Assembly: GCA_965261025.1 (NCBI GenBank)
Contig: OZ253438.1
Span: 840,001 to 872,000, forward strand
Length of the DNA stretch: 32,000 bases
Direction of reading: 5' to 3'
Source of the DNA: Chlamydiales bacterium
GTDB taxonomy: Bacteria > Chlamydiota > Chlamydiia > Chlamydiales > SM23-39
Of this stretch, positions 388 through 22,994 are shown one piece after another. Numbering within the stretch: the stretch's first letter is position 1; every line of letters begins with the position of its first letter. The notes beneath the pieces are model-generated. The model did not search any database and was not told the DNA's origin. It saw nothing but the letters and a program-made list of their open reading frames with translations. Both the position numbers and the translations under genes were made by a program.

Positions 388-2028
388 ATGAGACTATACA
401 CAGCACTATTTTCCTCTTTTTCCTTAAAGCCCACTACCCCGTTAGAAGTTGTGGAAAGCTCTCTTTCGAAAAAAGTTGTTTCTTCTGCGATAGTAGCTTT
501 TGCTTTGTTGGCTTTAGTGGTATACAGACTTACCCAGACAACTAGATCTAAGAGTAGGCCCCTTCTAAAAGCTTCCAGTTCCTTTGAAAAAATTTTAAAA
601 AACCTAAAACTAAGTCTAGTTCCCTCTATCTTCAAAGATCAAACTGATCCTAGAGAATATGTAAAGCAAGCCTTGAACAGGTTTCAAGAGCGGCAAAAAA
701 AGAGAATTTTAGCAGCCTGGAAGCAACTTCAAAATTCCTCAAGAAAACCTTCCCTTAAGGCTTTATCTGCTGCCTTTTACTTCTTGCAAGAAAACCCTGT
801 ACCAGAGGCACTAATATGCCGGACTTTTGTATTTCTCGTAGTTCACTACACCTTTTACGAAGATGCACCTTCTAAGGATTTTTACCAGTTTTTATTTAGA
901 ATACCAGTAGAACCTTTGATGGTTGTGTACGAAAAACTCGTTGAAGCTGAAAAGACCCAGAACTCCTATTTATTATTCTTCCCAGATGAGCACTACGAAA
1001 ACTTTTTTCCAGATAGCACCAGACAAATCCCAAATTATCCCTACTTAGCTCTTTCCCTTTTTAGGCAAGGCAAAATAGAAGTTGCCCTGCTAGCTACGAT
1101 ATGGCACTTGAAAAATATGGAAAATCTCTTTCAAGAGCATACTCAAGAAATTATCCGATGTAGTACCGATCAAGCTAAGGACTCCATAATAAATTCTTCT
1201 GGGTTGGTAAGTTGGGAAAACCCTGCAGTAAAAAACACAATGGATATGGCTTTATTAAACTCTCTACCTAAATATCCTGTATGGATACTACAACCTAAAC
1301 AACCGATTTATTTCTGTAAGGAAAAGGATGCTATGTTTTGTGAAATGCTCCGAAATGGATTCGTAAAGGCCCTTTTTTTGGCAACGGATATCCAGAAAAC
1401 TCAAGACATTTGCCTCTTTTCCTCTGCTATCATAGCTAAAACTCAAAAGAGTCCTTCACGGCAAATCTCGAACGCCTCTTCTATTTTACTTCTAGATTTT
1501 TCCCGGGCTTTTTCGCTTCGAAGCCAAGTTCTTAATTCTCCTTCCCTTCTACCTTACTTCTCTGCTGGCATTCTTTATCCAGAAGACATGGTGAGGGACT
1601 ATATAGAAAAGAAAAGAGGATTTACGGTTTCTCCTCCGGATATTCCTGCTAATTTACTAAAAACGGATCAGGCAGACAAAATGGCTACCACCTCTTTTAG
1701 CTTTACTGTACATGATTTATATCACCTTGCATGCATTTGGACTATACAACCTAATGTTCACCAAAAAGTTCGAAACCTAATAGGGGCCGTCCAAAAAGCA
1801 AATCTATCAGAAGAGACAAAGTCCACTATTATTGCTGGACTTATAGACTTTGATATTCCAGAGCTTGTTTGTCTCTCAAAAATTAGCGAATCCTATCAAG
1901 AAAACTGTCTCATTAAAAATATAAAAGGCATGTTGTCGGCTGAGTTCAATGATGGCTGTGTAAATTCGTCGACTGAGCTACCTCAGATTAAGAAAATCCT
2001 TCATCACTACTTAGGCTCTTTTCTATAA
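388..2028 (+). CDS. Hypothetical membrane-anchored protein (546 aa) with no recognisable domain
   Basis: Long uninterrupted ORF. It has one N-terminal hydrophobic helix (VVSSAIVAFALLALVVYRL) followed by a basic stretch. I recognise no catalytic motif. Its 3' end overlaps the convergent DUF115 gene by 41 nt. Confidence 0.6.
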   Translation: MRLYTALFSSFSLKPTTPLEVVESSLSKKVVSSAIVAFALLALVVYRLTQTTRSKSRPLLKASSSFEKILKNLKLSLVPSIFKDQTDPREYVKQALNRFQERQKKRILAAWKQLQNSSRKPSLKALSAAFYFLQENPVPEALICRTFVFLVVHYTFYEDAPSKDFYQFLFRIPVEPLMVVYEKLVEAEKTQNSYLLFFPDEHYENFFPDSTRQIPNYPYLALSLFRQGKIEVALLATIWHLKNMENLFQEHTQEIIRCSTDQAKDSIINSSGLVSWENPAVKNTMDMALLNSLPKYPVWILQPKQPIYFCKEKDAMFCEMLRNGFVKALFLATDIQKTQDICLFSSAIIAKTQKSPSRQISNASSILLLDFSRAFSLRSQVLNSPSLLPYFSAGILYPEDMVRDYIEKKRGFTVSPPDIPANLLKTDQADKMATTSFSFTVHDLYHLACIWTIQPNVHQKVRNLIGAVQKANLSEETKSTIIAGLIDFDIPELVCLSKISESYQENCLIKNIKGMLSAEFNDGCVNSSTELPQIKKILHHYLGSFL

Positions 2029-3553
2029 GAGCTATCTGCTTTTCTGCCTTTTCCTGAATAAAAATGAGCTTTTGTAACCAGTTATGCAAAAAAAGAGGTA
2101 CTTCCTTGTCTTTTTCTCGTAAAAAAGCCTCCTTCCAATTGAGCCATAAAGGATCGAGATACTCTACATACGCAATCTCTTTTTTCCAGGCTTTTTCTAA
2201 AAGATAGTCTGGAAAATGCCTTCTTTTCAAAAGCCTTACAAAATGCTTTTCTAGAAAAGAGAAGAGCCTCTTTCCGTGCTCCAAGCAATGGTTGAAACTT
2301 TTCTTTAAAAAAACTAGCTCCTCTTTTTTTTCCGATACAGAAACCCTATAGGAAGGAAAAGAAGCTATTTTCCTCTTTATATCCCCTTCTTTTATAAAAG
2401 TGTCTTGCAAGAACTTCTCAGAAAGTTTTTCCAGGGAAACCTCTTCTACTCCTGTAAAAGAAATCCCCCCCGAAGAGGCATTATAAATCCTTCCAGGGTT
2501 TTCTTCTGCTACTTTTTCTACCCATTTAGCAGCTAATAGAAAATCTTTCTTGGTAAAAAGAGTTTTCCCCTCTTTACTTTTGAAAGGGATAAGTTCTTCT
2601 TTTCTATGCTCTTTTTTATGCGCGTAGTAGCCACTAGAGGAAAAAGCAAAATCTAATCCTACCAAGATAATAGGATCACATCCCATATGAAGCATCTGAG
2701 AAAGAAAAAAAGTAGCTACATTCCAGCCACTGTCTGTAAATTCAGGGATTTCCAAAGCTTTATAAAGTCTATTTTGTAAAGGGTAAAAAGGGTGATCAGA
2801 AACCATTACTTTTCTAAAGAAAGATTTTTGCACAATCTGGGGATTTGATCTTAGCTGAAAAAAAAGAGGCACTTCCATTAAGGGGGTTTTTTCAAAGCAA
2901 GAAGAGGGGGCCTGTTTATCTACAGAAGAGACGAAGTGCGGTCTTATAGAAAAGTCTTGCAAAGCCTCAAAAGCAGTTCCTGCTGCAAAAAAAAGCGCTT
3001 TTTCTTGTAGATTTTGTAAAAGTTTTTTGTTTCTTTTTAGACTAGTTCCTGCGCCTAGCAAAAAAGCAGGCATCCCAGAAAAAGCTCCCTTATAATCAGA
3101 GACTTTTTGATACTCTTGTAGATGCAAAAAATTAGAGTACACATTTTCATAAAAAAGATCCATCTCATTTAACTCAGAAGCTACCATATCAAGCCCTAGA
3201 GAAAGCTCTTCAAAACTTTCCTTTACTAGAAGATAGGAAGCCTGTTTCTGATACGAAGCGCTAGTAAAAAGCTGCTTTTTTAAAAGAACAAACTCCCAAA
3301 AAAAAGCCTTCAATCTCTCTTTTTTTTCTAAAGGAGAAGAAAAAATATGAAATCTTACTTGATCTTGTTCTAAAAGCTTTTCTAAAGAAGGATCCTTACA
3401 AAATCCTTCTTCTTCTAAGATTACTAAGTAGCGCCCCTTTTGTACGAGCCATCTTCTTAAAAAAGAAAAAAAAGAAGGATCCCATTTATATACGAAAAAA
3501 ACCTCTGTTTCAGGGTAAGTCTGGATTGGCTCTGTAGAAGCTTTCATAAGCAC
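1988..3553 (-). CDS. DUF115 / MptE-like (Maf-type putative glycosyltransferase) family protein
   Basis: The 521-aa ORF carries the two DUF115 signatures. One is MPAFLLGAGTSLKRN...FFAAGTAFEALQDFSIRPHFVSSVD, a GxGxS nucleotide-binding loop followed by a ...PDF/HF..S.D motif. The other is MGCDPIILVGLDFAFS, matching the I.L.GxDxA motif. Its start overlaps the upstream gene's stop by 10 nt. Confidence 0.55.
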   Translation of the reverse strand: MLMKASTEPIQTYPETEVFFVYKWDPSFFSFLRRWLVQKGRYLVILEEEGFCKDPSLEKLLEQDQVRFHIFSSPLEKKERLKAFFWEFVLLKKQLFTSASYQKQASYLLVKESFEELSLGLDMVASELNEMDLFYENVYSNFLHLQEYQKVSDYKGAFSGMPAFLLGAGTSLKRNKKLLQNLQEKALFFAAGTAFEALQDFSIRPHFVSSVDKQAPSSCFEKTPLMEVPLFFQLRSNPQIVQKSFFRKVMVSDHPFYPLQNRLYKALEIPEFTDSGWNVATFFLSQMLHMGCDPIILVGLDFAFSSSGYYAHKKEHRKEELIPFKSKEGKTLFTKKDFLLAAKWVEKVAEENPGRIYNASSGGISFTGVEEVSLEKLSEKFLQDTFIKEGDIKRKIASFPSYRVSVSEKKEELVFLKKSFNHCLEHGKRLFSFLEKHFVRLLKRRHFPDYLLEKAWKKEIAYVEYLDPLWLNWKEAFLREKDKEVPLFLHNWLQKLIFIQEKAEKQIALIEKSLSSDEGFS

Positions 3554-3969
3554 TCATCTAAAAGCTCTTGGTAGGTAGGAAGAAAAGGAAGCTTTTCTAG
3601 TTTTTCCTCTTTAAAAAAAAAGGTAAAAATCCCTTTTTCATCTGCTAGGGCAAAAAAAGGAGCGTTCATTTTTTTATTATATCCTAAAAGCTGGGTAAAG
3701 TCTTTACGTAAGGAGATTTTTTTTTTGCATTCTATAAGCAAAAGAACTGAAGAGATTTTTGGAGAATAACAGACAATATCAAATCTCCTATAATTCTTCT
3801 CTTGCTGAAGAAAAGAATCGCAAAGCGTTGTAACCTTGCGCTCAACCCCTATATGACTTTTGGGAAAACCCTTCTTTTTCACCATGAAATGAAGAAGATT
3901 TTGCCTCACCTTTTCCTCAGCAGTAGCTTCAAGCCATTTCTTGCGAAAATCATCAAAAAGAAGGTTCAT
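3544..3969 (-). CDS. HsdR_N-like (type I restriction enzyme R-protein N-terminal, PD-(D/E)xK-fold) small protein
   Basis: The 141-aa ORF reads EEKVRQNLLHFMVKKKGFPKSHIGVE...RFDIVCY...LLLIECKK. This matches the EE.vR......L...gy......E......R.Dlv.......v.vEcK layout of stand-alone HsdR_N proteins. It has an ATGA overlap with the hpf stop. Confidence 0.55.
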   Translation of the reverse strand: MNLLFDDFRKKWLEATAEEKVRQNLLHFMVKKKGFPKSHIGVERKVTTLCDSFLQQEKNYRRFDIVCYSPKISSVLLLIECKKKISLRKDFTQLLGYNKKMNAPFFALADEKGIFTFFFKEEKLEKLPFLPTYQELLDECL

Positions 3970-4592
3970 TTTTCCACTTCAATCACACCAAAATTACCGT
4001 CTTCTCTTCTATAAATCACTTTCAGTTTTTGATCTTCCTCTCCCTTATAAACCAAAAAAGATTCTCCTGAAAGCTCCATTTTCATGATAGCTTCTTCCTG
4101 TGTAAACATACGAACTGCCATTTTTTCTGCACTAACTACCTTGTGAAATTCGTATGTCTGCATTTCTTTACGCCAATTTTCTGCTTCAATCTCTGTATTG
4201 ATCTCAGAGAGTTCATCTCTTTGCGGTTGGAGTACATTTACCTTTAAGTCAATAGAACCCAGATTGGCAACATGCTTTTGCTGTAGCTTTTCTTTATACT
4301 TAGAAATTAAACGAAGAAGCTTATCCGTTGCTTTGTCAATAGCAGAATAAAGATCATTGGTAGAGGCATGCGCCTTTATGGAAAAATGGAAAAACTTCAT
4401 AAAAAAGGAAGCGGTATGCTCTAGCTTTTGCACATCTAACGTAACTTGAATTTCCAAAATATTTTTAGAAAACCGCTCAATCTTTGAAAGCTTCTCTAAC
4501 ACATATTCTTGAATGGGCCCGGTAACTTGAAGATTTTTTCCTACAAGGGAAATAGTATATCCTTCCGTTTCAAAAACATGACCTTTCTGCAT
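3966..4592 (-). CDS. hpf: Ribosome hibernation promoting factor, long form (S30AE / sigma-54 modulation protein family)
   Basis: The N-terminal S30AE domain reads ISLVGKNLQVTGPIQEYVLEKLSKIERF...LYSAIDKATDKL. The C-terminal dimerisation domain reads MFTQEEAIMKMELSGESFLVYKGEEDQKLKVIYRREDGNFGVIE. A GGAGG Shine-Dalgarno lies 5 nt upstream of the ATG. Confidence 0.9.
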   Translation of the reverse strand: MQKGHVFETEGYTISLVGKNLQVTGPIQEYVLEKLSKIERFSKNILEIQVTLDVQKLEHTASFFMKFFHFSIKAHASTNDLYSAIDKATDKLLRLISKYKEKLQQKHVANLGSIDLKVNVLQPQRDELSEINTEIEAENWRKEMQTYEFHKVVSAEKMAVRMFTQEEAIMKMELSGESFLVYKGEEDQKLKVIYRREDGNFGVIEVEK

Positions 4593-7574: not shown

Positions 7575-9947
7575 ATGAAACTCCCTCTTTCTCAGTTAAA
7601 ACTTTTTTTAGACCTGTCTCTTCCTTTGGAAAAAATAGAAAAATCCCTGACTCTTTTGGGTCTGGAAGTGGAAGAGGTTTATACCACTCCCTTTTTTGAA
7701 AAAGTTGTCGCAGCGGAAATTATTTCCCTCTCTTTTCACCCTAAGACCTCCCGCTTGCTCCTACTACAAGTATCTGATGGAAAACAACATTATTCCATTG
7801 TCTGTTCTGATCTTTCTTGTAAAAAGGGAGATCGAGTGGCTCTTGCAAAAGAAGATGCCATTTTACCCACCAGTAATGGATCCTGTGTCGTAAAGAAACA
7901 GCTCATTCAGGAAGTGCTTTCAGAAGGGATGCTTGTTTCTTCTAAAGAACTTCATCTCTCTCATTCTCATGAATGCGTCTATCGATTAGATGAAACACTT
8001 GCTTTAGGAACTTCCCTTTTTCAAGAGCTTTCTGACACAGTTTTTACCCTTTCTTTAACTCCTAATCTGGGACATTGTCTAAGTGTTTTTGGCGTAGCAA
8101 GGGAGCTCGCTGCTTTTTTAAATCTTCCCTTAAAAAAGCCCTCTTTCTCTTCCGAAACACTTCCTCGAGAGACAAGCCTTTCTTTAAAAATAGACCCTAC
8201 CACCTGCTTTCATTTTTCCTTGAGAAAACTCGAAAACATAACGGTAAAACCCTCTCCTTTCTGGTTAAAAAGGACTTTAGAGCTCTTTGAAATTCCTTCT
8301 GTAAACAACGTAGTGGATATTACCAACTATCTTTTAATGCTCTATGGTCAACCTCTTCACGCATACGATGCCTCTACTCTTTCTTCTTGCCTAGAGGTAA
8401 AATCAATAGATGTGCCTTCTTTTGTTGCTTTAGACGGGAAAACCTATTCTTTAAAAAAAGCACTCTGTGTGGTTTGTGAAAAAGAACCCCTTTGTCTAGC
8501 AGGAGTTATAGGGGGAGAAAAAACCAGCATACAGCCAAAAACTGCTTCCCTTTTTTTAGAAGCAGCCTTTTTTTCTCCCAGCCTGGTAAGAAAAACAGCC
8601 AAACAGCTTCCCCTAAAAACAGAAAGCTCTCAAAGAGCTGAGAAAGGACTAGACCCTTCCCTTATTTCTTTTGTACTACAAAGTGCTACCTCATTGCTTG
8701 AAGAATTAGCTGGAGCTATTCCCCTTTCTGAAATTAGCTTTTCCTCTCCTATTGATCCGATTATTATCGATGTCTCTCTCTCTTATTTTCAGGAAAAATT
8801 GGGTTTGGCTCTTTCTCTATCAGAGATAAAAGAAATCTTGGAAAAGCTCGGGTTTTTGATAAAAAGGGAAAAAGAAGAGCTGCTTTGGGTAGAAGTTCCC
8901 CCTTTTCGACATGATATAAAAATAAAAGCAGATCTCTTGGAAGAAGTAGCCAGAATCTACGGACTGAATCATTTTCCTTCTTATTCTCCCTCGTTTCGTA
9001 TAGGAGCCCATAGGGATCATCCCTTTTATCTCTTCGAGCAACTTCTAAGAAAGACTTTCCTTAGGCAGGGACTGCAAGAAATCATAACTACCGACCTAGT
9101 AAGTCCTTTCATTGCAAAAATTTCCCTAGAAGAGACATTAAAAGAAAAAGACCTACTTCAAGTATTACATGCCAAAAGTGAAGAATATTCTTTTTTAAGA
9201 CCTTCTCTTTTAGGATCTCATCTTACTGTTTTACAACACAACTTCTCTCATAAAAACCGCTCTTTTCAAGGCTTTGAGATTGCTTCTATTTATTTTCAAA
9301 AAGAGACTGTTTTACAAGAGCGTCCTGTTATCTCTTCTATTATGACAGGAGAAGAGGCTCCTTTTCACTTTTCTCAAAAAGAATCTTCTTTTGCCTTTTC
9401 CAAAGCAAAAGGTTTTATAGAAAGCCTTTTAGAAACCTTAAAAATTGGCTCTTACTCTTTTAAGCCCTCCTCCCATCCTAGTTTTCATCCAGGAAGGCAA
9501 GCTAATGTATACATAGGGGATATCTATGCAGGGGTAATAGGGGAAGTTCACCCCTCGCTTCTTTCCCAGTTCGACCTGGATCAGAGAGTCTATTTTTTTG
9601 AACTACATATCTCTTCTTTGTATTCCCAAAAGAAAGAAGCTATTTCCATGAGAGCTCTTCCCTCATTTCCTGGATCACAAAGAGACTGGACTTTTACCGT
9701 AAGGCAAAACTTTAGTGTAGAAAAAATCTTTTCTTTCTGTAAAAAATTGGGTTCTTCTCTTTTAGAAAAAGTAGAGCTAAGAGCTATTTACGAATCAGAA
9801 AAGCTAGGGGATAAGAAAAAAAATCTTACCCTCCGTTTTTATTACAGGGATCTTTTTCGAACTCTTTCCTTGGAGGAAATTGAAAAAGAGCATCAATTCC
9901 TTACCGAAAAAATCGCAAATCATTTAAAAGAATACCTGTATCTATGA
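7575..9947 (+). CDS. pheT: Phenylalanine--tRNA ligase beta subunit
   Basis: The 790-aa ORF has the N-terminal MKLPLSQLKLFLD...LTLLGLEVEEV. Its B3/4 domain motif is NNVVDITNYLLMLYGQPLHAYD. It also has a B5 region (PPFRHDIKIKADLLEEVARIYG) and a C-terminal FDX-ACB-like domain. Confidence 0.93.
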   Translation: MKLPLSQLKLFLDLSLPLEKIEKSLTLLGLEVEEVYTTPFFEKVVAAEIISLSFHPKTSRLLLLQVSDGKQHYSIVCSDLSCKKGDRVALAKEDAILPTSNGSCVVKKQLIQEVLSEGMLVSSKELHLSHSHECVYRLDETLALGTSLFQELSDTVFTLSLTPNLGHCLSVFGVARELAAFLNLPLKKPSFSSETLPRETSLSLKIDPTTCFHFSLRKLENITVKPSPFWLKRTLELFEIPSVNNVVDITNYLLMLYGQPLHAYDASTLSSCLEVKSIDVPSFVALDGKTYSLKKALCVVCEKEPLCLAGVIGGEKTSIQPKTASLFLEAAFFSPSLVRKTAKQLPLKTESSQRAEKGLDPSLISFVLQSATSLLEELAGAIPLSEISFSSPIDPIIIDVSLSYFQEKLGLALSLSEIKEILEKLGFLIKREKEELLWVEVPPFRHDIKIKADLLEEVARIYGLNHFPSYSPSFRIGAHRDHPFYLFEQLLRKTFLRQGLQEIITTDLVSPFIAKISLEETLKEKDLLQVLHAKSEEYSFLRPSLLGSHLTVLQHNFSHKNRSFQGFEIASIYFQKETVLQERPVISSIMTGEEAPFHFSQKESSFAFSKAKGFIESLLETLKIGSYSFKPSSHPSFHPGRQANVYIGDIYAGVIGEVHPSLLSQFDLDQRVYFFELHISSLYSQKKEAISMRALPSFPGSQRDWTFTVRQNFSVEKIFSFCKKLGSSLLEKVELRAIYESEKLGDKKKNLTLRFYYRDLFRTLSLEEIEKEHQFLTEKIANHLKEYLYL

Positions 9948-9965
9948 AAACTTTGGGAGAAGAAA

Positions 9966-10928
9966 ATGGATCGTGTCTTAGCAGCTCTAACAAGCTTCTG
10001 CCTTATTTTGCTTACCTCTGGATGCCAAAGCTCTTCTTGCGGCATGGTCTCAGAGAAATTTATCCATAAGTATGGTTTTGTCGTTTCCAAGAAAGAATGG
10101 GAAGAAAGAGGTCGGGAGGGACAGAGAGTTTCTCTTTGGGATAATGGAATAGAGGTAAACAGTTCTTACCAAGAAGGACTTCTGCACGGGCCTTCTACCT
10201 ATACCTTTCCTTATTCGCCTCAGGTAAAAAAAGAGGAAATTTACGATCAGGGAGAACTTCTTTCCGTACGATTTTTTGATAGGCAAGGAGTTCCTGTATA
10301 CGAAGAAACTTTTGTTATTGATGGAATTAGGGAACTGTCTTACTGGGACAATAACGGAGCTCCTATTGCTTTCGAAAAGTATCAGGGAGGACTTTTGCTA
10401 GAAGGAGTCTACTACACTCCTCTTCACGAGATAGAAGGAAAGATTACCAAAGGAACAGGACTTCGCACTTTTCGGGATAGAGAAGGTATTCTCCTTTACC
10501 AAGATAGAATGGAAAGAGGTTTTTTAAAACAAAGAACTACGTACCATCCCAATGGCAAAGTACACCAAATTGTCCATTATGATAACTACCTACCTCAAGG
10601 AAGAAAAGAAGAATACACCTTTTTAGGAAACCTCCGCATGATATCTCACTGGGATAAGGGAATTTTACATGGAGAGAAAATGGATTTTCGAGAAGGAAAA
10701 AAATTCCGAAGATCTCTCTATCACCGAGGAACTTTAGAAGGAGTAGAAGATCGGTTTGATCCAGAAGAAAACCTGATACAAAAAACCCCATTCCACGAAG
10801 GGAAAAAGCATGGGGAAGCCCTTGCTCTAGAGAAAAACCAATGGAAATCTCATTGGTTTTTTCAAGGGAGATCGGTCTCTAAAGAACGTTTTCTACAACT
10901 AGAGCAGAAAGAGCAGAATACACAATAA
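9966..10928 (+). CDS. Lipoprotein with MORN-variant (YwqK-type) repeats
   Basis: The signal peptide has a lipobox, LILLTSG|C. After it come repeated units of about 23 aa of the form G.(L/K)HG....Y..(N/D)G......Y..G...G, for example YQEGLLHGPSTYTF, YQGGLLLEGVYYT, HWDKGILHGEKMDF and FHEGKKHGEALAL. Confidence 0.7.
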   Translation: MDRVLAALTSFCLILLTSGCQSSSCGMVSEKFIHKYGFVVSKKEWEERGREGQRVSLWDNGIEVNSSYQEGLLHGPSTYTFPYSPQVKKEEIYDQGELLSVRFFDRQGVPVYEETFVIDGIRELSYWDNNGAPIAFEKYQGGLLLEGVYYTPLHEIEGKITKGTGLRTFRDREGILLYQDRMERGFLKQRTTYHPNGKVHQIVHYDNYLPQGRKEEYTFLGNLRMISHWDKGILHGEKMDFREGKKFRRSLYHRGTLEGVEDRFDPEENLIQKTPFHEGKKHGEALALEKNQWKSHWFFQGRSVSKERFLQLEQKEQNTQ

Positions 10929-10955
10929 GACTCCTTCTTACTAGAAAGAGTCTTA
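10926..10955. terminator. Hairpin between convergent genes (possible bidirectional terminator or RNA-stability element)
   Basis: TAAGACTC (10926-10933) pairs with GAGTCTTA (10948-10955), giving an 8-bp stem. A further 3 inner bp follow after one mismatch. It sits in the 33-nt gap between two convergent CDSs. There is no clear U-tract on either strand. Confidence 0.3.
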
Positions 10956-10961
10956 TAGAAA

Positions 10962-11294
10962 TTAATTAGTTTTTTCCTGAGAAGGAGCCACTTCGCTCTC
11001 TTTCACCAAGGAAAGAACTTTTTCCTCTAATTTTTTTGCCTTTTCTTCTAAAAGAGCGGCAGGTTCTTTTTCCAAAGAGGCACTTTTTTCCTCGGAGGCA
11101 GGCTCCATCAGATGAATTTCCTCTTTTGCTTCCTCCACGGGACACGTTCCCCCATGATCCTCTTGAGAGCCCTGACCTTCATCATAGTGAGAGTCTCTCT
11201 CATCTTCCCTCATCATAGAGTTTTTTTTCCCACAAGAGGCAAAAGAACCTAAAGCCAAAGAAAGGCCCAGTCCCATATATACGATCTTTCTCAT
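10962..11294 (-). CDS. Small acidic lipoprotein, hypothetical
   Basis: The 110-aa ORF has a signal peptide plus lipobox (LALGSFAS|CGKK). The mature part is a highly acidic, low-complexity E/K/S-rich region. Confidence 0.6.
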   Translation of the reverse strand: MRKIVYMGLGLSLALGSFASCGKKNSMMREDERDSHYDEGQGSQEDHGGTCPVEEAKEEIHLMEPASEEKSASLEKEPAALLEEKAKKLEEKVLSLVKESEVAPSQEKTN

Positions 11295-11467
11295 TGTATT
11301 CTAAATCTCCTTAAAGTAACGCTTACAAGAAAAATCTAATCGCAAAGGGAAAATTATGCAACTCCTTCTAGAGAAATCGGAAAAAATTGCCCCTTCCTTA
11401 GCTTTCTCTTTTTGGTTAAAAAATTTTTATCTACTTGATTGCAAGTAAATTATAAAAAAAAAATCCT

Positions 11468-11483
11468 TGGCACGCTTTTTGCT
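11468..11483 (+). promoter_or_regulatory. Sigma-54 (RpoN) -24/-12 promoter
   Basis: TGGCAC-GCTTT-TTGCT is an exact match to TGGCAC-N5-TTGC(A/T). An A10 tract (11454-11463) lies immediately upstream. The -12 GC is 42 nt upstream of ATG 11524, and a strong SD AGGGGGA sits at 11513-11519. Confidence 0.7.
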
Positions 11484-11523
11484 TCCTTTATCTAGAGTGT
11501 CACTTCAACTTTAGGGGGATTTT

Positions 11524-11745
11524 ATGTCAGAAAAAAAACTAAAAGATAAGATAGCCAAACTAGAATCCATCAATGATCTACTCTCTGCAGAGATACGTCA
11601 CCTACATCAAATCGCTATGAAGCTAGGATTTCCCGAAGGACTAAAAACCCTAAAAGAAGCCGCCATGGAACTTATCGAACTGGAAGAGAACTGGGAGAAC
11701 TTCCCCACCTCCAAAGAAGATGAGAAAAATCCCCCTAAAGAGTGA
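11524..11745 (+). CDS. Small hypothetical protein (73 aa), predicted helical and acidic; putative sigma-54 target
   Basis: The ORF has a strong SD and sits directly downstream of the -24/-12 promoter. Its sequence is MSEKKLKDKIAKLESINDLLSAEIRHLHQIAMKLGFPEGLKTLKEAAMELIELEENWENF... I recognise no family. Confidence 0.6.
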   Translation: MSEKKLKDKIAKLESINDLLSAEIRHLHQIAMKLGFPEGLKTLKEAAMELIELEENWENFPTSKEDEKNPPKE

Positions 11746-11751
11746 CTTTTT

Positions 11752-12705
11752 TCAGGAAGAAGAGCGAAGGAATTTTTGCTTTTCTTCCTTTTTTTCTTTC
11801 CTAAAAGGTTTGGGTTTCAAACTTGGATCGAAAGGGCGAACCCTTCCTTTTTCTAGACAAGAAATAGAGCAGCATCCTCTACTTTTCTGAATGCAACAAG
11901 GACAAGCCAAAAAAAGCTCATTACAGTCCATATTAGCGCAGTTATAATAGTTCTCCGTTTTTTCCTTGCAAAAATGGCACAGGGCAATATCTTCTTGATT
12001 CTCCTTACAAATAGAGATAACTAATCTATCATCGAAAACAAAAAGCTTTCCCTTCCAGTGATCTGTTCCTACTTCTTCCCCGTACTGGAGAACACCCCCT
12101 TTTAGCTGATAAACTTTTTTAAAGCCCTTACTCTTTACATAAGCAGAATAATATTCGCAACGGATTCCTCCTGTGCAGTACATCATGATGGGCGTATCTA
12201 GATCCTTTCCTTTCAAAAGTTTTTCTGTAAAAGTGGGAAAATCTCGAAAAGAGTCTACATCAGGCAAAACAGCCCCTTCAAAATGGCCTATACAAGATTC
12301 ATAACTATTCCTTGCGTCGATAAGAATGCGGCTTTCCTCAAAAGTATCCAACATTTTTTTCCACTGGACAGGAGTTAAAAACTCCCCGGTTGAAGAAAGA
12401 TCCACTTCCTGATCAAAAGCAACCAGGTCTCGTACTTTCACTTGCATCTTGTGAAAAGCCTGCTCTGAATAAGACTGCATTTTTAGAGAAATATCTTGAT
12501 AAAAAGGGTTTTCCTGGAGTTTTTGCAAAAGTTTTTCTATTTCTTCTCTTTTTCCGCTAAACTGCGCGTTAACGCCTTCCTTAGAAACATAAATTCTTCC
12601 TTTGAAATCCCCCTTTTCAAAATTTCTCCGGAGAAAAACTGCCTCTTCTTCCGGGTTTTCTATAGAAGAGAACAAATAAAAAGAAACCACTAAATAATTT
12701 TGCAT
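11752..12705 (-). CDS. trhO: Rhodanese-domain tRNA uridine(34) hydroxylase (UPF0176/YceA family)
   Basis: The N-terminus YLVVSFYLFSSIENPEE is typical of UPF0176. The rhodanese active-site loop is MMYCTGGIRCEYYSAY. A C-terminal Cys-rich tail is present (CHFCKEK...CANMDC...CPCC). Confidence 0.88.
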   Translation of the reverse strand: MQNYLVVSFYLFSSIENPEEEAVFLRRNFEKGDFKGRIYVSKEGVNAQFSGKREEIEKLLQKLQENPFYQDISLKMQSYSEQAFHKMQVKVRDLVAFDQEVDLSSTGEFLTPVQWKKMLDTFEESRILIDARNSYESCIGHFEGAVLPDVDSFRDFPTFTEKLLKGKDLDTPIMMYCTGGIRCEYYSAYVKSKGFKKVYQLKGGVLQYGEEVGTDHWKGKLFVFDDRLVISICKENQEDIALCHFCKEKTENYYNCANMDCNELFLACPCCIQKSRGCCSISCLEKGRVRPFDPSLKPKPFRKEKKEEKQKFLRSSS

Positions 12706-20399: not shown

Positions 20400-22994
20400 G
20401 TGCTTTTAGGGGACCTCTCTTTTTCCAAGAAATCGTTCGCAGGTTTATCCGAGATCTTCTCTTCTTTTGAAACACAAGAATTTAAAAATTTGGGGGATAG
20501 AAGAAGAAGCCATATTGTCAACCAGGCCCTTTTAAAGCTGATCGAAAGAGAAAAAGAACCTGCCTTTTTACTGAGAGAAGTTTTGGATTTTGTGGAGAAG
20601 GTAGACGAGAAAAACTATCTTTCTCACTACACTTTTACCAGTTTTGAGCTCTGGCTCAACCATTCTTCAAATCTCTCCTTGGAACAGATGCTGCGAATAC
20701 GCGCCAAAATTGTAGGGAAGTGGATCCCCAGGGAGGAGTATCAGAGAATTTTCCCCATAGGTATGAATAAATTCTACGAAGGGTCTCATTTCGTAACGGC
20801 TCATAAGTCTCCTGACTTAGATACTACGATAGCCTCTTTTTGGGGTTTTGTAGATGCCTTTGGAGCAAAAGTTGGTTCAAACTTACATATCTGGAATATT
20901 CCCGGAGGTCCCCCTTCTTCTCAAATAGAAATTGATATGATTTTTCGAGGGTTTTTTGGTAATGCCGTTTTTTCCCACCTTGCTAAAACAGCTTCTTTTC
21001 TTTCTTTAACGGGAAATGATCTGATGAGTCAAAAACGTATGACTCGAAAAACTTTGGAAGAAAAAATGGTCTCTATTTCTCCTGAAAGAGAAACCAAGGC
21101 GGTTGTCCTAGTCGATGAAGAAGGCTACTTCCTAGGAGATTGGCGAAATATGGATGTGCAGGGAGTAAGACAGCTTATCATGCTCTTAAATGGTTCTCTA
21201 CGCTGGTTCGAAAATCATTTGCATGTAAAATTCATATCTCTTTTTGCCAAACCCAAGCTCCACCTCTCTGAAATTCCAGCCCTTTTAAAGAACCTATTTC
21301 AGATTCCTATAAAAGAAGCAGAGCCTGTGAAGGAATATTCTGAGAAGGATCGGGAAAGGCTGAATCAATTTCTACAAAAAGTTTTTCTAGTACAAGAAGG
21401 GATTTTAGCTACTTTCGAAGACTTTGCCAAGGCGCTGCATCAATTTTCTATTTTTGATCTGGAAAAGGTACAAAATCTTTTTCATCAGGCAGAAAAACTC
21501 CCCTTTTTTGATAAGCAAGGGTTTTTAATGGAGGATCGTCCCCTTATCTTTTCTTATTTAGAAAAAGCGATACAAAATATCCACATCTGGATACAAAATG
21601 TAAGAGGTTTTCTAGAAAGATTTGATATTGCCTTGAAGGTAAAAAATTTGGTTTATGGACATAGCCCCAATTTTGTAACTGTAAGAGACGATGTAGAGGA
21701 AATAAAAAATAAAATGGATGCCTACCAACACTTAACGGTTGTTTATCCAGAAAAAGACCATCTTTTTCCTGTAGGAATTATTTTTGCTGAGGAACTCCGT
21801 AAAAAGACACTTGGAACCGTTTCTTTGCGTGATTTCTGTAACCGAGAAGAAATGGGAATTCCCTCTTATTTAGAGGTAATTAGTGTAATCGACCATCATA
21901 AAAGCTCTTTACAAACTTTTTCCCCACCTAGCGCTATCATAGCAGATGCCCAATCTAGTAATGCCATTGTCTTTGAACTTACCTACGGGATAAACCAAAA
22001 ATATAGCACAAAAAACCAATCTTTAGAAAAGGTAGAAGCTCAGCTGCTAAAGCTTTCTCAAGAAGAAAATGCCGCCTCTTTTAGAAAGCAAAAGAACCTT
22101 TTACAAAAGAAGCAAATTCTACACAAAAAGCAGGATTACTACATCCATGTAGAAAGAGAAATGATGGAGTATCTCCATTTTCTCTACGGAATCTTAGATG
22201 ATACAGATCTTCTCTCCAAGGTCTCTTATAGGGATGTAGATGCAGTGAGCACCCTCTTAAATGCTTTAAAAAGCCTTGCCTTACAGGAAGAAGTAGAAAT
22301 AGTCTCTTTAGAAGAGCTTCCCAAAGATAAGGACTACTTATCCAAGGCAGCCAAGTTACTTTTACAAAACGAGGACCTGTACTCTTTGTATAAAAGAGTC
22401 TACCACTTCCGGGAAAAGGAAGTAGAAAAAAACATAGAGCTTTGCTCCAGAAAAGAATCTAGCTCTTTTTTTGCTGATACTAAAGAGCAAAATGGATGTT
22501 CTAGAGTAGGACAGACCAAGTTATTTTCTAAAAACATCTCCTCCTTGGAGAAAAATCTACCAGCTCTCCGTTCTGCTTGGCTTGAAAAAGCTCTAGGTAT
22601 CCAGGAAGATAAGCCAGAGTATGATTTACATCTTCATATGATTAGCACTATTGTGGGAGCGGAAGAAGTATACCAAGGAAAAGAAGGAGAATATTTGCAC
22701 AAGGACCAACTTTGGATATGGATTCCTGATACAGAAATGGGAAGAAGCCACCTAAAGCGCTTTCTAAGCTCTTTTCAAGAATGTGAGGCTTTACAAAAGG
22801 CCCCCTTAGAAGTTGAGTTTCTAGGGGAAGAAGTGGAAAACTTGGAGCAGATTTTTCAGGAAAGCTTCTTTCCTACTCCTTCTCGAAAAAAGAGGGGGCT
22901 AAAAGAATCTTCTATGGCAATTCTTTACTACAAGGCGGGGAGCTTGAACTCTAGAAAGACGATGATCTCTCCTTTTCTTCCCTCTTTAATTTAG
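20400..22994 (+). CDS. DHH/DHHA2-family phosphoesterase, family-II-pyrophosphatase-like with large insertions (864 aa)
   Basis: DHH motif I is AHKSPDLDTTIASF (H-x-x-P-D-x-D). Motif III is VISVIDHHKSS. Motif IV is LYGILDDTDLLSKVSYRDVDAV, matching l.sDT..l.S.tt..D. The DHHA2-type C-terminus is GSLNSRKTMISPFL, compared with the SRKKQ motif. A possible CBS-like strand (AVVLVDEEGYFLGDWRNMDV) lies in the insert of about 360 aa between motifs I and III. The start is GTG and uncertain. Confidence 0.6.
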   Translation: MLLGDLSFSKKSFAGLSEIFSSFETQEFKNLGDRRRSHIVNQALLKLIEREKEPAFLLREVLDFVEKVDEKNYLSHYTFTSFELWLNHSSNLSLEQMLRIRAKIVGKWIPREEYQRIFPIGMNKFYEGSHFVTAHKSPDLDTTIASFWGFVDAFGAKVGSNLHIWNIPGGPPSSQIEIDMIFRGFFGNAVFSHLAKTASFLSLTGNDLMSQKRMTRKTLEEKMVSISPERETKAVVLVDEEGYFLGDWRNMDVQGVRQLIMLLNGSLRWFENHLHVKFISLFAKPKLHLSEIPALLKNLFQIPIKEAEPVKEYSEKDRERLNQFLQKVFLVQEGILATFEDFAKALHQFSIFDLEKVQNLFHQAEKLPFFDKQGFLMEDRPLIFSYLEKAIQNIHIWIQNVRGFLERFDIALKVKNLVYGHSPNFVTVRDDVEEIKNKMDAYQHLTVVYPEKDHLFPVGIIFAEELRKKTLGTVSLRDFCNREEMGIPSYLEVISVIDHHKSSLQTFSPPSAIIADAQSSNAIVFELTYGINQKYSTKNQSLEKVEAQLLKLSQEENAASFRKQKNLLQKKQILHKKQDYYIHVEREMMEYLHFLYGILDDTDLLSKVSYRDVDAVSTLLNALKSLALQEEVEIVSLEELPKDKDYLSKAAKLLLQNEDLYSLYKRVYHFREKEVEKNIELCSRKESSSFFADTKEQNGCSRVGQTKLFSKNISSLEKNLPALRSAWLEKALGIQEDKPEYDLHLHMISTIVGAEEVYQGKEGEYLHKDQLWIWIPDTEMGRSHLKRFLSSFQECEALQKAPLEVEFLGEEVENLEQIFQESFFPTPSRKKRGLKESSMAILYYKAGSLNSRKTMISPFLPSLI

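Follow-up and report, generated by a model that had tools for sequence, protein, structure and literature searches.

The classical example of an enhancer-dependent sigma-54 promoter is glnAp2 of E. coli with NtrC, and the consensus for promoters of this type is YTGGCACGrNNNTTGCW. The described systems that are closest to the locus analyzed here are found in the Chlamydiae. ChIP-seq of sigma-54 in Chlamydia trachomatis L2 gave only two peaks, at ctl0021 (which is the same gene as ct652.1) and at ctl0052 (ct683); both peaks were seen at late times only and preceded the coding regions by about 50 bp (Rizvi et al. 2025, PMC12282069). ChIP of sigma-66 in C. trachomatis detected no binding at ctl0021 (PMC12282069). 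The start sites of the C. trachomatis sigma-54 genes had been mapped earlier (Mathews & Timms 2000, as cited in PMC12282069). Rizvi and colleagues also reported a sigma-54 promoter upstream of the ctl0021 homologues of Protochlamydia, Parachlamydia, and Simkania; Protochlamydia naegleriophila has four tandem copies of the gene, each with a sigma-54 promoter of its own (Table S1 of PMC12282069). The function of CTL0021 has so far gone unstudied, according to the same authors (PMC12282069), and CT652.1 is among the candidate substrates of type III secretion that emerged from an assay with Shigella as the surrogate (Subtil et al. 2005, as listed in PMC7862739).

Sigma-54 occurs across the phylum (PMC4652624), and one genome, that of Candidatus Rubidus massiliensis, is marked as having "no rpoN ortholog" (Table S1 of PMC12282069). 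The sigma-54 activator AtoC/CtcC is one of eight regulators that are conserved in all Chlamydiae (PMC4652624), and it is transcribed late in Waddlia (PMC4989314). Because the CtcC protein has no DNA-binding domain, Rizvi and colleagues argued that it activates in a general manner (PMC12282069).

We analyzed a stretch of 32 kb from a member of the Chlamydiales (hereafter the window, with positions counted from its first base), for which the initial annotation proposed a sigma-54 promoter in front of a small gene of a chlamydia-like organism. The proposal is well supported: the gene is a homologue of CT652.1, and the promoter precedes it in 48 of 66 loci. The system as such has already been described (PMC12282069), so the window provides a further clean instance of it and not a discovery, and it leaves the existing understanding of the system unchanged. 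What it adds is an activator that bears a helix-turn-helix (HTH) domain, the loss of the promoter in some lineages that have kept the gene order, and runs of A or T upstream of the -24 element.

A sigma-54 promoter in front of a small gene

The main features of the locus are:

11454-11463, + strand: A10 tract, by direct reading, which ends 4 nt upstream of the -24 element
11468-11483, + strand: sigma-54 promoter, TGGCAC-GCTTT-TTGCT (TGGCACGCTTTTTGCT), by direct reading; matches at 11 of 11 specified positions
11469-11470, + strand: GG of the -24 element (TGGCAC)
11481-11482, + strand: GC of the -12 element (TTGCT), which follows TGGCAC after a 5-nt spacer
11494, + strand: predicted transcription start (+1), from standard sigma-54 geometry with the C at 11482 taken as -12
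11513-11519, + strand: Shine-Dalgarno sequence AGGGGGA, by direct reading; 4 nt before the ATG
11524-11745, + strand: 73-aa ORF of the CT652.1/CTL0021 family (stop codon at 11743-11745), from homology searches and AlphaFold2
11754-11799, + strand: intrinsic terminator, from a terminator scan (RNA fold of -20.7 kcal/mol, z = -3.4)
11752-12705, - strand: convergent rhodanese/UPF0176 gene, whose last codons are overlapped by the terminator
10962-11294, - strand: 110-aa ORF in divergent orientation to the promoter; its lipoprotein-like signal reads …LALGSFASC, and the rest of its sequence is very acidic
2-178, + strand: 3' end of a gene for a sigma-54 activator, or bacterial enhancer-binding protein (bEBP), with a Fis-type HTH_8 domain (Pfam, E = 2.9e-9; stop codon at 176-178)

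Reading the DNA directly confirmed that the promoter, the Shine-Dalgarno sequence, and the start codon lie where the initial annotation had placed them. It had also called the promoter the only exact match in the window, and indeed TGGCAC-N5-TTGCW occurs just once across both strands, as compared to 0.01 matches expected by chance (1 of 100 dinucleotide-preserving shuffles gave a match). The GG and GC dinucleotides are exactly 10 bp apart. We also scored the window with the chlamydial sigma-54 position weight matrix (PWM) of Rizvi and colleagues, for which the authors' cutoff is 10 (Table S1 of PMC12282069). The promoter scored 16.43 and was the sole site above 10; the runner-up scored 7.96. 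The predicted 5' untranslated region is about 30 nt long, and the C of the -12 element lies 42 nt before the ATG. Judged by its sequence and by the conservation that we describe below, the motif is a genuine and strongly conserved sigma-54 promoter.

The initial annotation described the 73-aa ORF as an orphan, which is wrong, as the family is conserved across the phylum (69 loci). Nine metagenomic or genomic homologues were found at E ≤ 2e-12, and their alignment has 24 invariant columns. The annotation had also suggested comparing the protein to the orthologues of CT652.1, and the two proved to be homologous: by BLASTP, the window protein matches the orthologues from C. avium (E = 1e-14, 43% identity) and C. 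muridarum (E = 8e-13), and by hhalign, the profile of the window family matches the profile of ten orthologues from Table S1 (probability of 99.3%, E = 1.2e-20, 56 columns). These BLASTP and profile-profile matches identify the ORF as a homologue of CT652.1/CTL0021. Eight residues (L13, E14, D18, E23, G35, F36, G39, and E49) are invariant in 20 sequences that include those from Chlamydia, Protochlamydia, and Parachlamydia. The window protein also conforms to the size of the family (about 58-73 aa) and to its motifs, which are LARLE..NDQL in helix 1 and GFPEGL.T.K.

The window thus shares with ct652.1/ctl0021 a single small homologous gene with GG/GC elements at -24/-12, a 5-nt spacer, and a location about 50 bp upstream. 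The two differ in that the core of the window's promoter is TGGCAC-GCTTT-TTGCT, whereas the published consensus for the family is TGGCACAATTTTCGCT; in that the window protein has a longer acidic tail; in the neighboring genes, which in the window are pheT, a MORN-repeat gene, and the rhodanese gene; and in that sigma-54 control is predicted for the window from its sequence. The promoter itself can also be compared to those of ct683/ctl0052: TGGCACGCTTTTTGCT is identical, letter for letter, to the ctl0052 promoters of C. psittaci and C. poikilothermis, and the 15 bases that are listed for the ctl0052 promoters of C. abortus, C. caviae, C. felis, and C. muridarum match as well (these also have a PWM score of 16.43). 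However, the gene downstream of the ctl0052 promoter encodes a tetratricopeptide-repeat protein of about 330 aa, and the window contains neither a ctl0052-like tetratricopeptide-repeat gene nor a second sigma-54 promoter. As compared to promoters of the glnAp2/NtrC type, the window's core fits the consensus, the activator has a C-terminal Fis-type HTH, and the A/T tract could supply bending. On the other hand, we identified no conserved activator site or IHF-like site in 49 loci, the regulon seems to comprise very few genes, and the promoter serves a developmental gene instead of a metabolic or motility gene.

Conservation of the promoter across the Chlamydiota

By scanning one genome per bacterial species, we obtained 69 loci that encode a relative of the 73-aa protein. 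The titles of many of these sequences name Chlamydiota, Chlamydiae, Chlamydiia, Chlamydiales, Parachlamydiales, or Anoxychlamydiales; many others are titled just "uncultured bacterium" or "bacterium"; and four are titled as Verrucomicrobia/Verrucomicrobiota or Aerophobetes. In our reading, GTDB places the Chlamydiia within the Verrucomicrobiota, and the "Aerophobetes" locus (L052) is nearly identical to a locus from the Chlamydiia (L053). None of the 69 titles is clearly outside the Chlamydiota. In most of the 69 loci, the gene order is pheT, the MORN-repeat gene, the CT652.1-like gene, and the convergent rhodanese/UPF0176 (TrhO-like) gene, and the same order is found at 7575-12705 of the window.

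Of these loci, 66 had the 80 nt or more of upstream DNA that we required for a promoter scan. We considered a site to be a match if it agreed with the consensus at 10 or more of 11 positions and lay at most 200 nt upstream of the gene, and we used the window as the positive control. Such a match was present in 48 of these loci. The exact consensus was found upstream of the gene 37 times and nowhere else in 377,772 bp (counting both strands); similarly, the published PWM gave 39 sites upstream of the gene in the same loci and none elsewhere. Across the anchored set (the window and the 48 loci), TGGCA (columns 0-4) and GC (columns 13-14) are invariant in 49 of 49 sites, and the extended consensus is TGGCACG(G/C)TTTTTGCA-TCT. 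In nearly all of the orthologous loci, the C of the -12 element and the ATG are separated by 28-43 nt, with a mode of 33. GGAGG-like ribosome-binding sites occupy the same place, between the -12 element and the ATG.

The pairing of this promoter with this gene was previously tabulated for about twenty genomes, and 48 of 66 loci is a far wider sample. The sigma-54 regulon of the Chlamydiae appears to be very small, with CT652.1/CTL0021 as its most conserved member, and the wide conservation supports the view that the small protein has a central role in the developmental switch of chlamydiae.

Loci with a degenerate or missing promoter

In about 15 loci that have the conserved gene order, the motif is degenerate or absent. 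L002 and L003 (2890-3000) have TGGCAC-N5-TTAC, so that the -12 element is degenerate; the -12 element is TTTC in L016 and TTCC in L064; and the motif has decayed further in L046 and L047. We saw no trace of a sigma-54 motif in a freshwater clade (L030, L036, L037, L038, and L041) or in Simkania-like loci from marine environments (L052, L053, L055, and L060). In L002, L003, L016, and the freshwater clade, the ORF stays intact even though the motif is degenerate or lost. Because the promoter is missing or degenerate in about 15 loci, it appears that members of the family can be expressed without sigma-54. At the level of the motif, these exceptions qualify the published statement that the homologues of ctl0021 have the promoter "in every case." The lineages in which the promoter has decayed could serve as natural "loss" lineages for comparison.

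The loci from the freshwater clade have an AT-rich block in common, tgatgaattaattatg..taatg.tatttatta, with no obvious Shine-Dalgarno sequence. Also, two metagenome-assembled genomes contain two copies of the family each (L007 and L059 in one, L025 and L029 in the other). L059 looks like a paralogue, as it has neither the synteny nor the promoter.

The activator gene

The initial annotation reported that the window begins with the end of an NtrC-type activator, and this holds up at the level of domains. Only 58 amino acids of the protein are encoded within the window, comprising just the HTH_8 domain, and the gene ends 11 kb from the promoter. The fragment's best alignments in NCBIfam are to the last 45 or so residues of FlbD and AtoC, and its best match in PDB is the DNA-binding domain of an NtrC-family protein from Aquifex (4l5e). 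A word-indexed homology search with the 58-aa fragment gave no match, and when 1.8 billion representatives were searched exhaustively, 352 matches were obtained, all of them related at the level of the domain only. We examined the ten nearest relatives that are full-length or longer than the fragment: all ten are sigma-54 activators with Sigma54_activat, AAA_lid_14, and a C-terminal HTH_8, and several have a receiver domain as well. The closest full-length relative (P0036) lies on a contig of 2.5 kb that shares no synteny with the window. By comparison with these proteins, the ATPase domain of the activator, which in bEBPs of the NtrC/AtoC type (receiver, AAA+, and HTH_8) is the part that interacts with sigma-54, is probably encoded upstream of base 1.

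The CtcC protein of C. trachomatis lacks an HTH (PMC7482065; PMC3162934), whereas the window's activator carries one of the Fis type. CtcC-type proteins, which are type Ic bEBPs, are recognized by having no C-terminal HTH, and the protein that ends at base 178 does have one. Either it represents AtoC/CtcC in a more complete, ancestral form, or it is another bEBP altogether. The window itself does not contain rpoN.

The sequence upstream of the promoter

The initial annotation drew attention to the A10 tract as a potential bend. The tract is at the reported position (11454-11463), but it is not conserved as such: only the closest relative (L001) shares it, as A8, and what recurs in the other loci is a run of A or T. 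Specifically, a run of 5 nt or more within the 20 nt upstream of the -24 element is present in 26 of 49 loci, as compared to 73 of 340 background windows. This is an enrichment of about 2.5-fold over the background of 21%, which was taken from local intergenic windows of equal AT content (Fisher's exact test, p = 1.2e-5). As the loci are related by descent and the runs occur in either orientation, the A/T run should be viewed as a tendency and not as a defined element. It is possible that the A10 tract, or the A or T run more generally, acts as an UP-like or bending element.

Across the 49 loci, we found no convincing upstream activator site or IHF-like site that was conserved. One candidate for an activator site was a group of TTGCAAT-like k-mers, which were present in 9 loci as compared to 1 expected from shuffled sequences. 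We rejected it because the difference from the real background was modest (3.1 vs. 1.8 per kb) and the k-mers had no fixed position or orientation. We also considered the palindrome TACTTG-ATTG-CAAGTA (11432-11447), which is perfect, has its center about 55 nt before the predicted start, and includes the GATTGCAA k-mer, whose enrichment is weak. The palindrome is not shared even by L001.

The transcription unit

The terminator downstream of the ORF comprises a 16-bp hairpin (11754-11789) followed by a run of U. Another terminator-like hairpin, of 14 bp, lies at 10925-10956, directly 3' of the stop codon of the MORN-repeat gene. In the 229-bp intergenic region (11295-11523), we found no sigma-70-like promoter, using the E. 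coli consensus (which may fit chlamydial promoters poorly). With no sigma-70-like site and with hairpins after both the MORN-repeat gene and the ORF, the gene looks monocistronic and appears to have its own promoter. The region has no match to an Rfam family, and it has no match to plasmids by megablast. The divergent 110-aa ORF is conserved only in L001 (61% identity), so it is lineage-specific.

We are fairly sure that this is a monocistronic, sigma-54-dependent unit that drives the orthologue of CT652.1/CTL0021. RNA polymerase with sigma-54 would bind the -24/-12 elements at 11468-11483 as a closed complex, and an AAA+ enhancer-binding protein of the NtrC/AtoC (CtcC) type would use ATP to open the complex. 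This activator is probably the product of the gene that ends at base 178. Transcription would begin near 11494, translation of the 73-aa protein would begin at the ATG at 11524, and the hairpin at 11754-11799 would end transcription. By analogy to C. trachomatis, the unit is most likely turned on late in the developmental cycle, at the stage at which dividing cells turn into infectious ones.

Alternative explanations

It is unlikely, in our view, that the -24/-12 promoter works but sigma-66, or read-through from the MORN-repeat gene, accounts for part or even most of the gene's transcription. This idea would account for the intact ORF and gene order in loci whose motif is degenerate (L002, L003, and L016) or missing (L030, L036, L037, L038, and L041), and sigma-66 promoters are AT-rich and are badly captured by a scan with the E. 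coli consensus. Nevertheless, we found no sigma-70-like site in 11295-11523, read-through would have to pass the terminator-like hairpin at 10925-10956 after the MORN-repeat gene, and the exact consensus has been maintained in 37 loci. The lack of detectable binding by sigma-66 at ctl0021 in C. trachomatis (PMC12282069) also argues against it.

Another idea is that the 16-mer is bound by some other DNA-binding protein, or that it is a relic in a genome that lacks rpoN. The invariance of TGGCA and GC in 49 sites, with exact spacing, is the signature of sigma-54, and a relic would decay, as is visible in L046, L047, and L064; also, a gene for an activator with an intact C-terminal domain is present in the same window. 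So, even though rpoN was not seen in the 32 kb and an rpoN orthologue is reportedly missing from one Chlamydia-related genome (PMC12282069), we consider this explanation to be very improbable. A functionless chance match is the least probable of all. AT-rich DNA of 32 kb can hold many short matches, and 1 of the 100 shuffled sequences did give one, but just 0.01 were expected, and the motif precedes homologous genes in 48 loci, at a conserved distance, while 378 kb contain no further copy of the exact consensus. Conservation effectively refutes this explanation.

Returning to the sigma-54-dependent unit, a broader and tentative scenario, which we would not rate as probable, is that this organism and many environmental chlamydiae use an activator that has kept its DNA-binding domain to control a minimal regulon that is enhancer-dependent and promoter-specific, that some lineages have been rewired, and that the A/T run, as a functional UP-like or bending element, takes the place of IHF. 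If this is true, then activation in these organisms differs from that by the enhancer-independent CtcC of Chlamydia, and the same developmental gene has been rewired away from sigma-54.

Predicted structure of the 73-aa protein

AlphaFold2, with an alignment of nine sequences, predicts a helix (residues 3-33), a loop, a second helix (residues 40-58), and a disordered acidic tail, with a mean pLDDT of 81. The loop between the two predicted helices (residues 34-39, GFPEGL) is invariant. A Foldseek search of PDB with the AlphaFold2 model gave no match, and profile searches of Pfam, NCBIfam, and PDB assigned no family, with only sub-threshold matches to coiled coils of the bZIP, DivIC, ZapB, or FtsB type. 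The product is predicted to be a small helix-loop-helix hairpin with an acidic tail, whose first helix resembles a leucine zipper. If we had to guess, the 73-aa protein might be a dimerising adaptor that binds other proteins and is produced for the infectious form or packaged in it.

Other genes in the window

Two long ORFs lie on the + strand: a 546-aa ORF (388-2028), directly 3' of the activator gene, has no match in Pfam or NCBIfam, and an 864-aa ORF (20400-22994) has no match in Pfam. On the - strand, 3966-4592 encodes a long-form ribosome hibernation factor, with Pfam's "Sigma 54 modulation protein / S30EA" domain and a C-terminal domain. (The name "Sigma 54 modulation protein" is historical, and no rpoN lies beside the gene in the window.) The hibernation factor may be relevant to the dormancy of the infectious form. 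Finally, a 521-aa protein with an MptE-like/DUF115 domain is encoded at 1988-3553 on the - strand. This domain usually goes with flagellin glycosylation (Maf) proteins and would be unexpected in a chlamydial genome.
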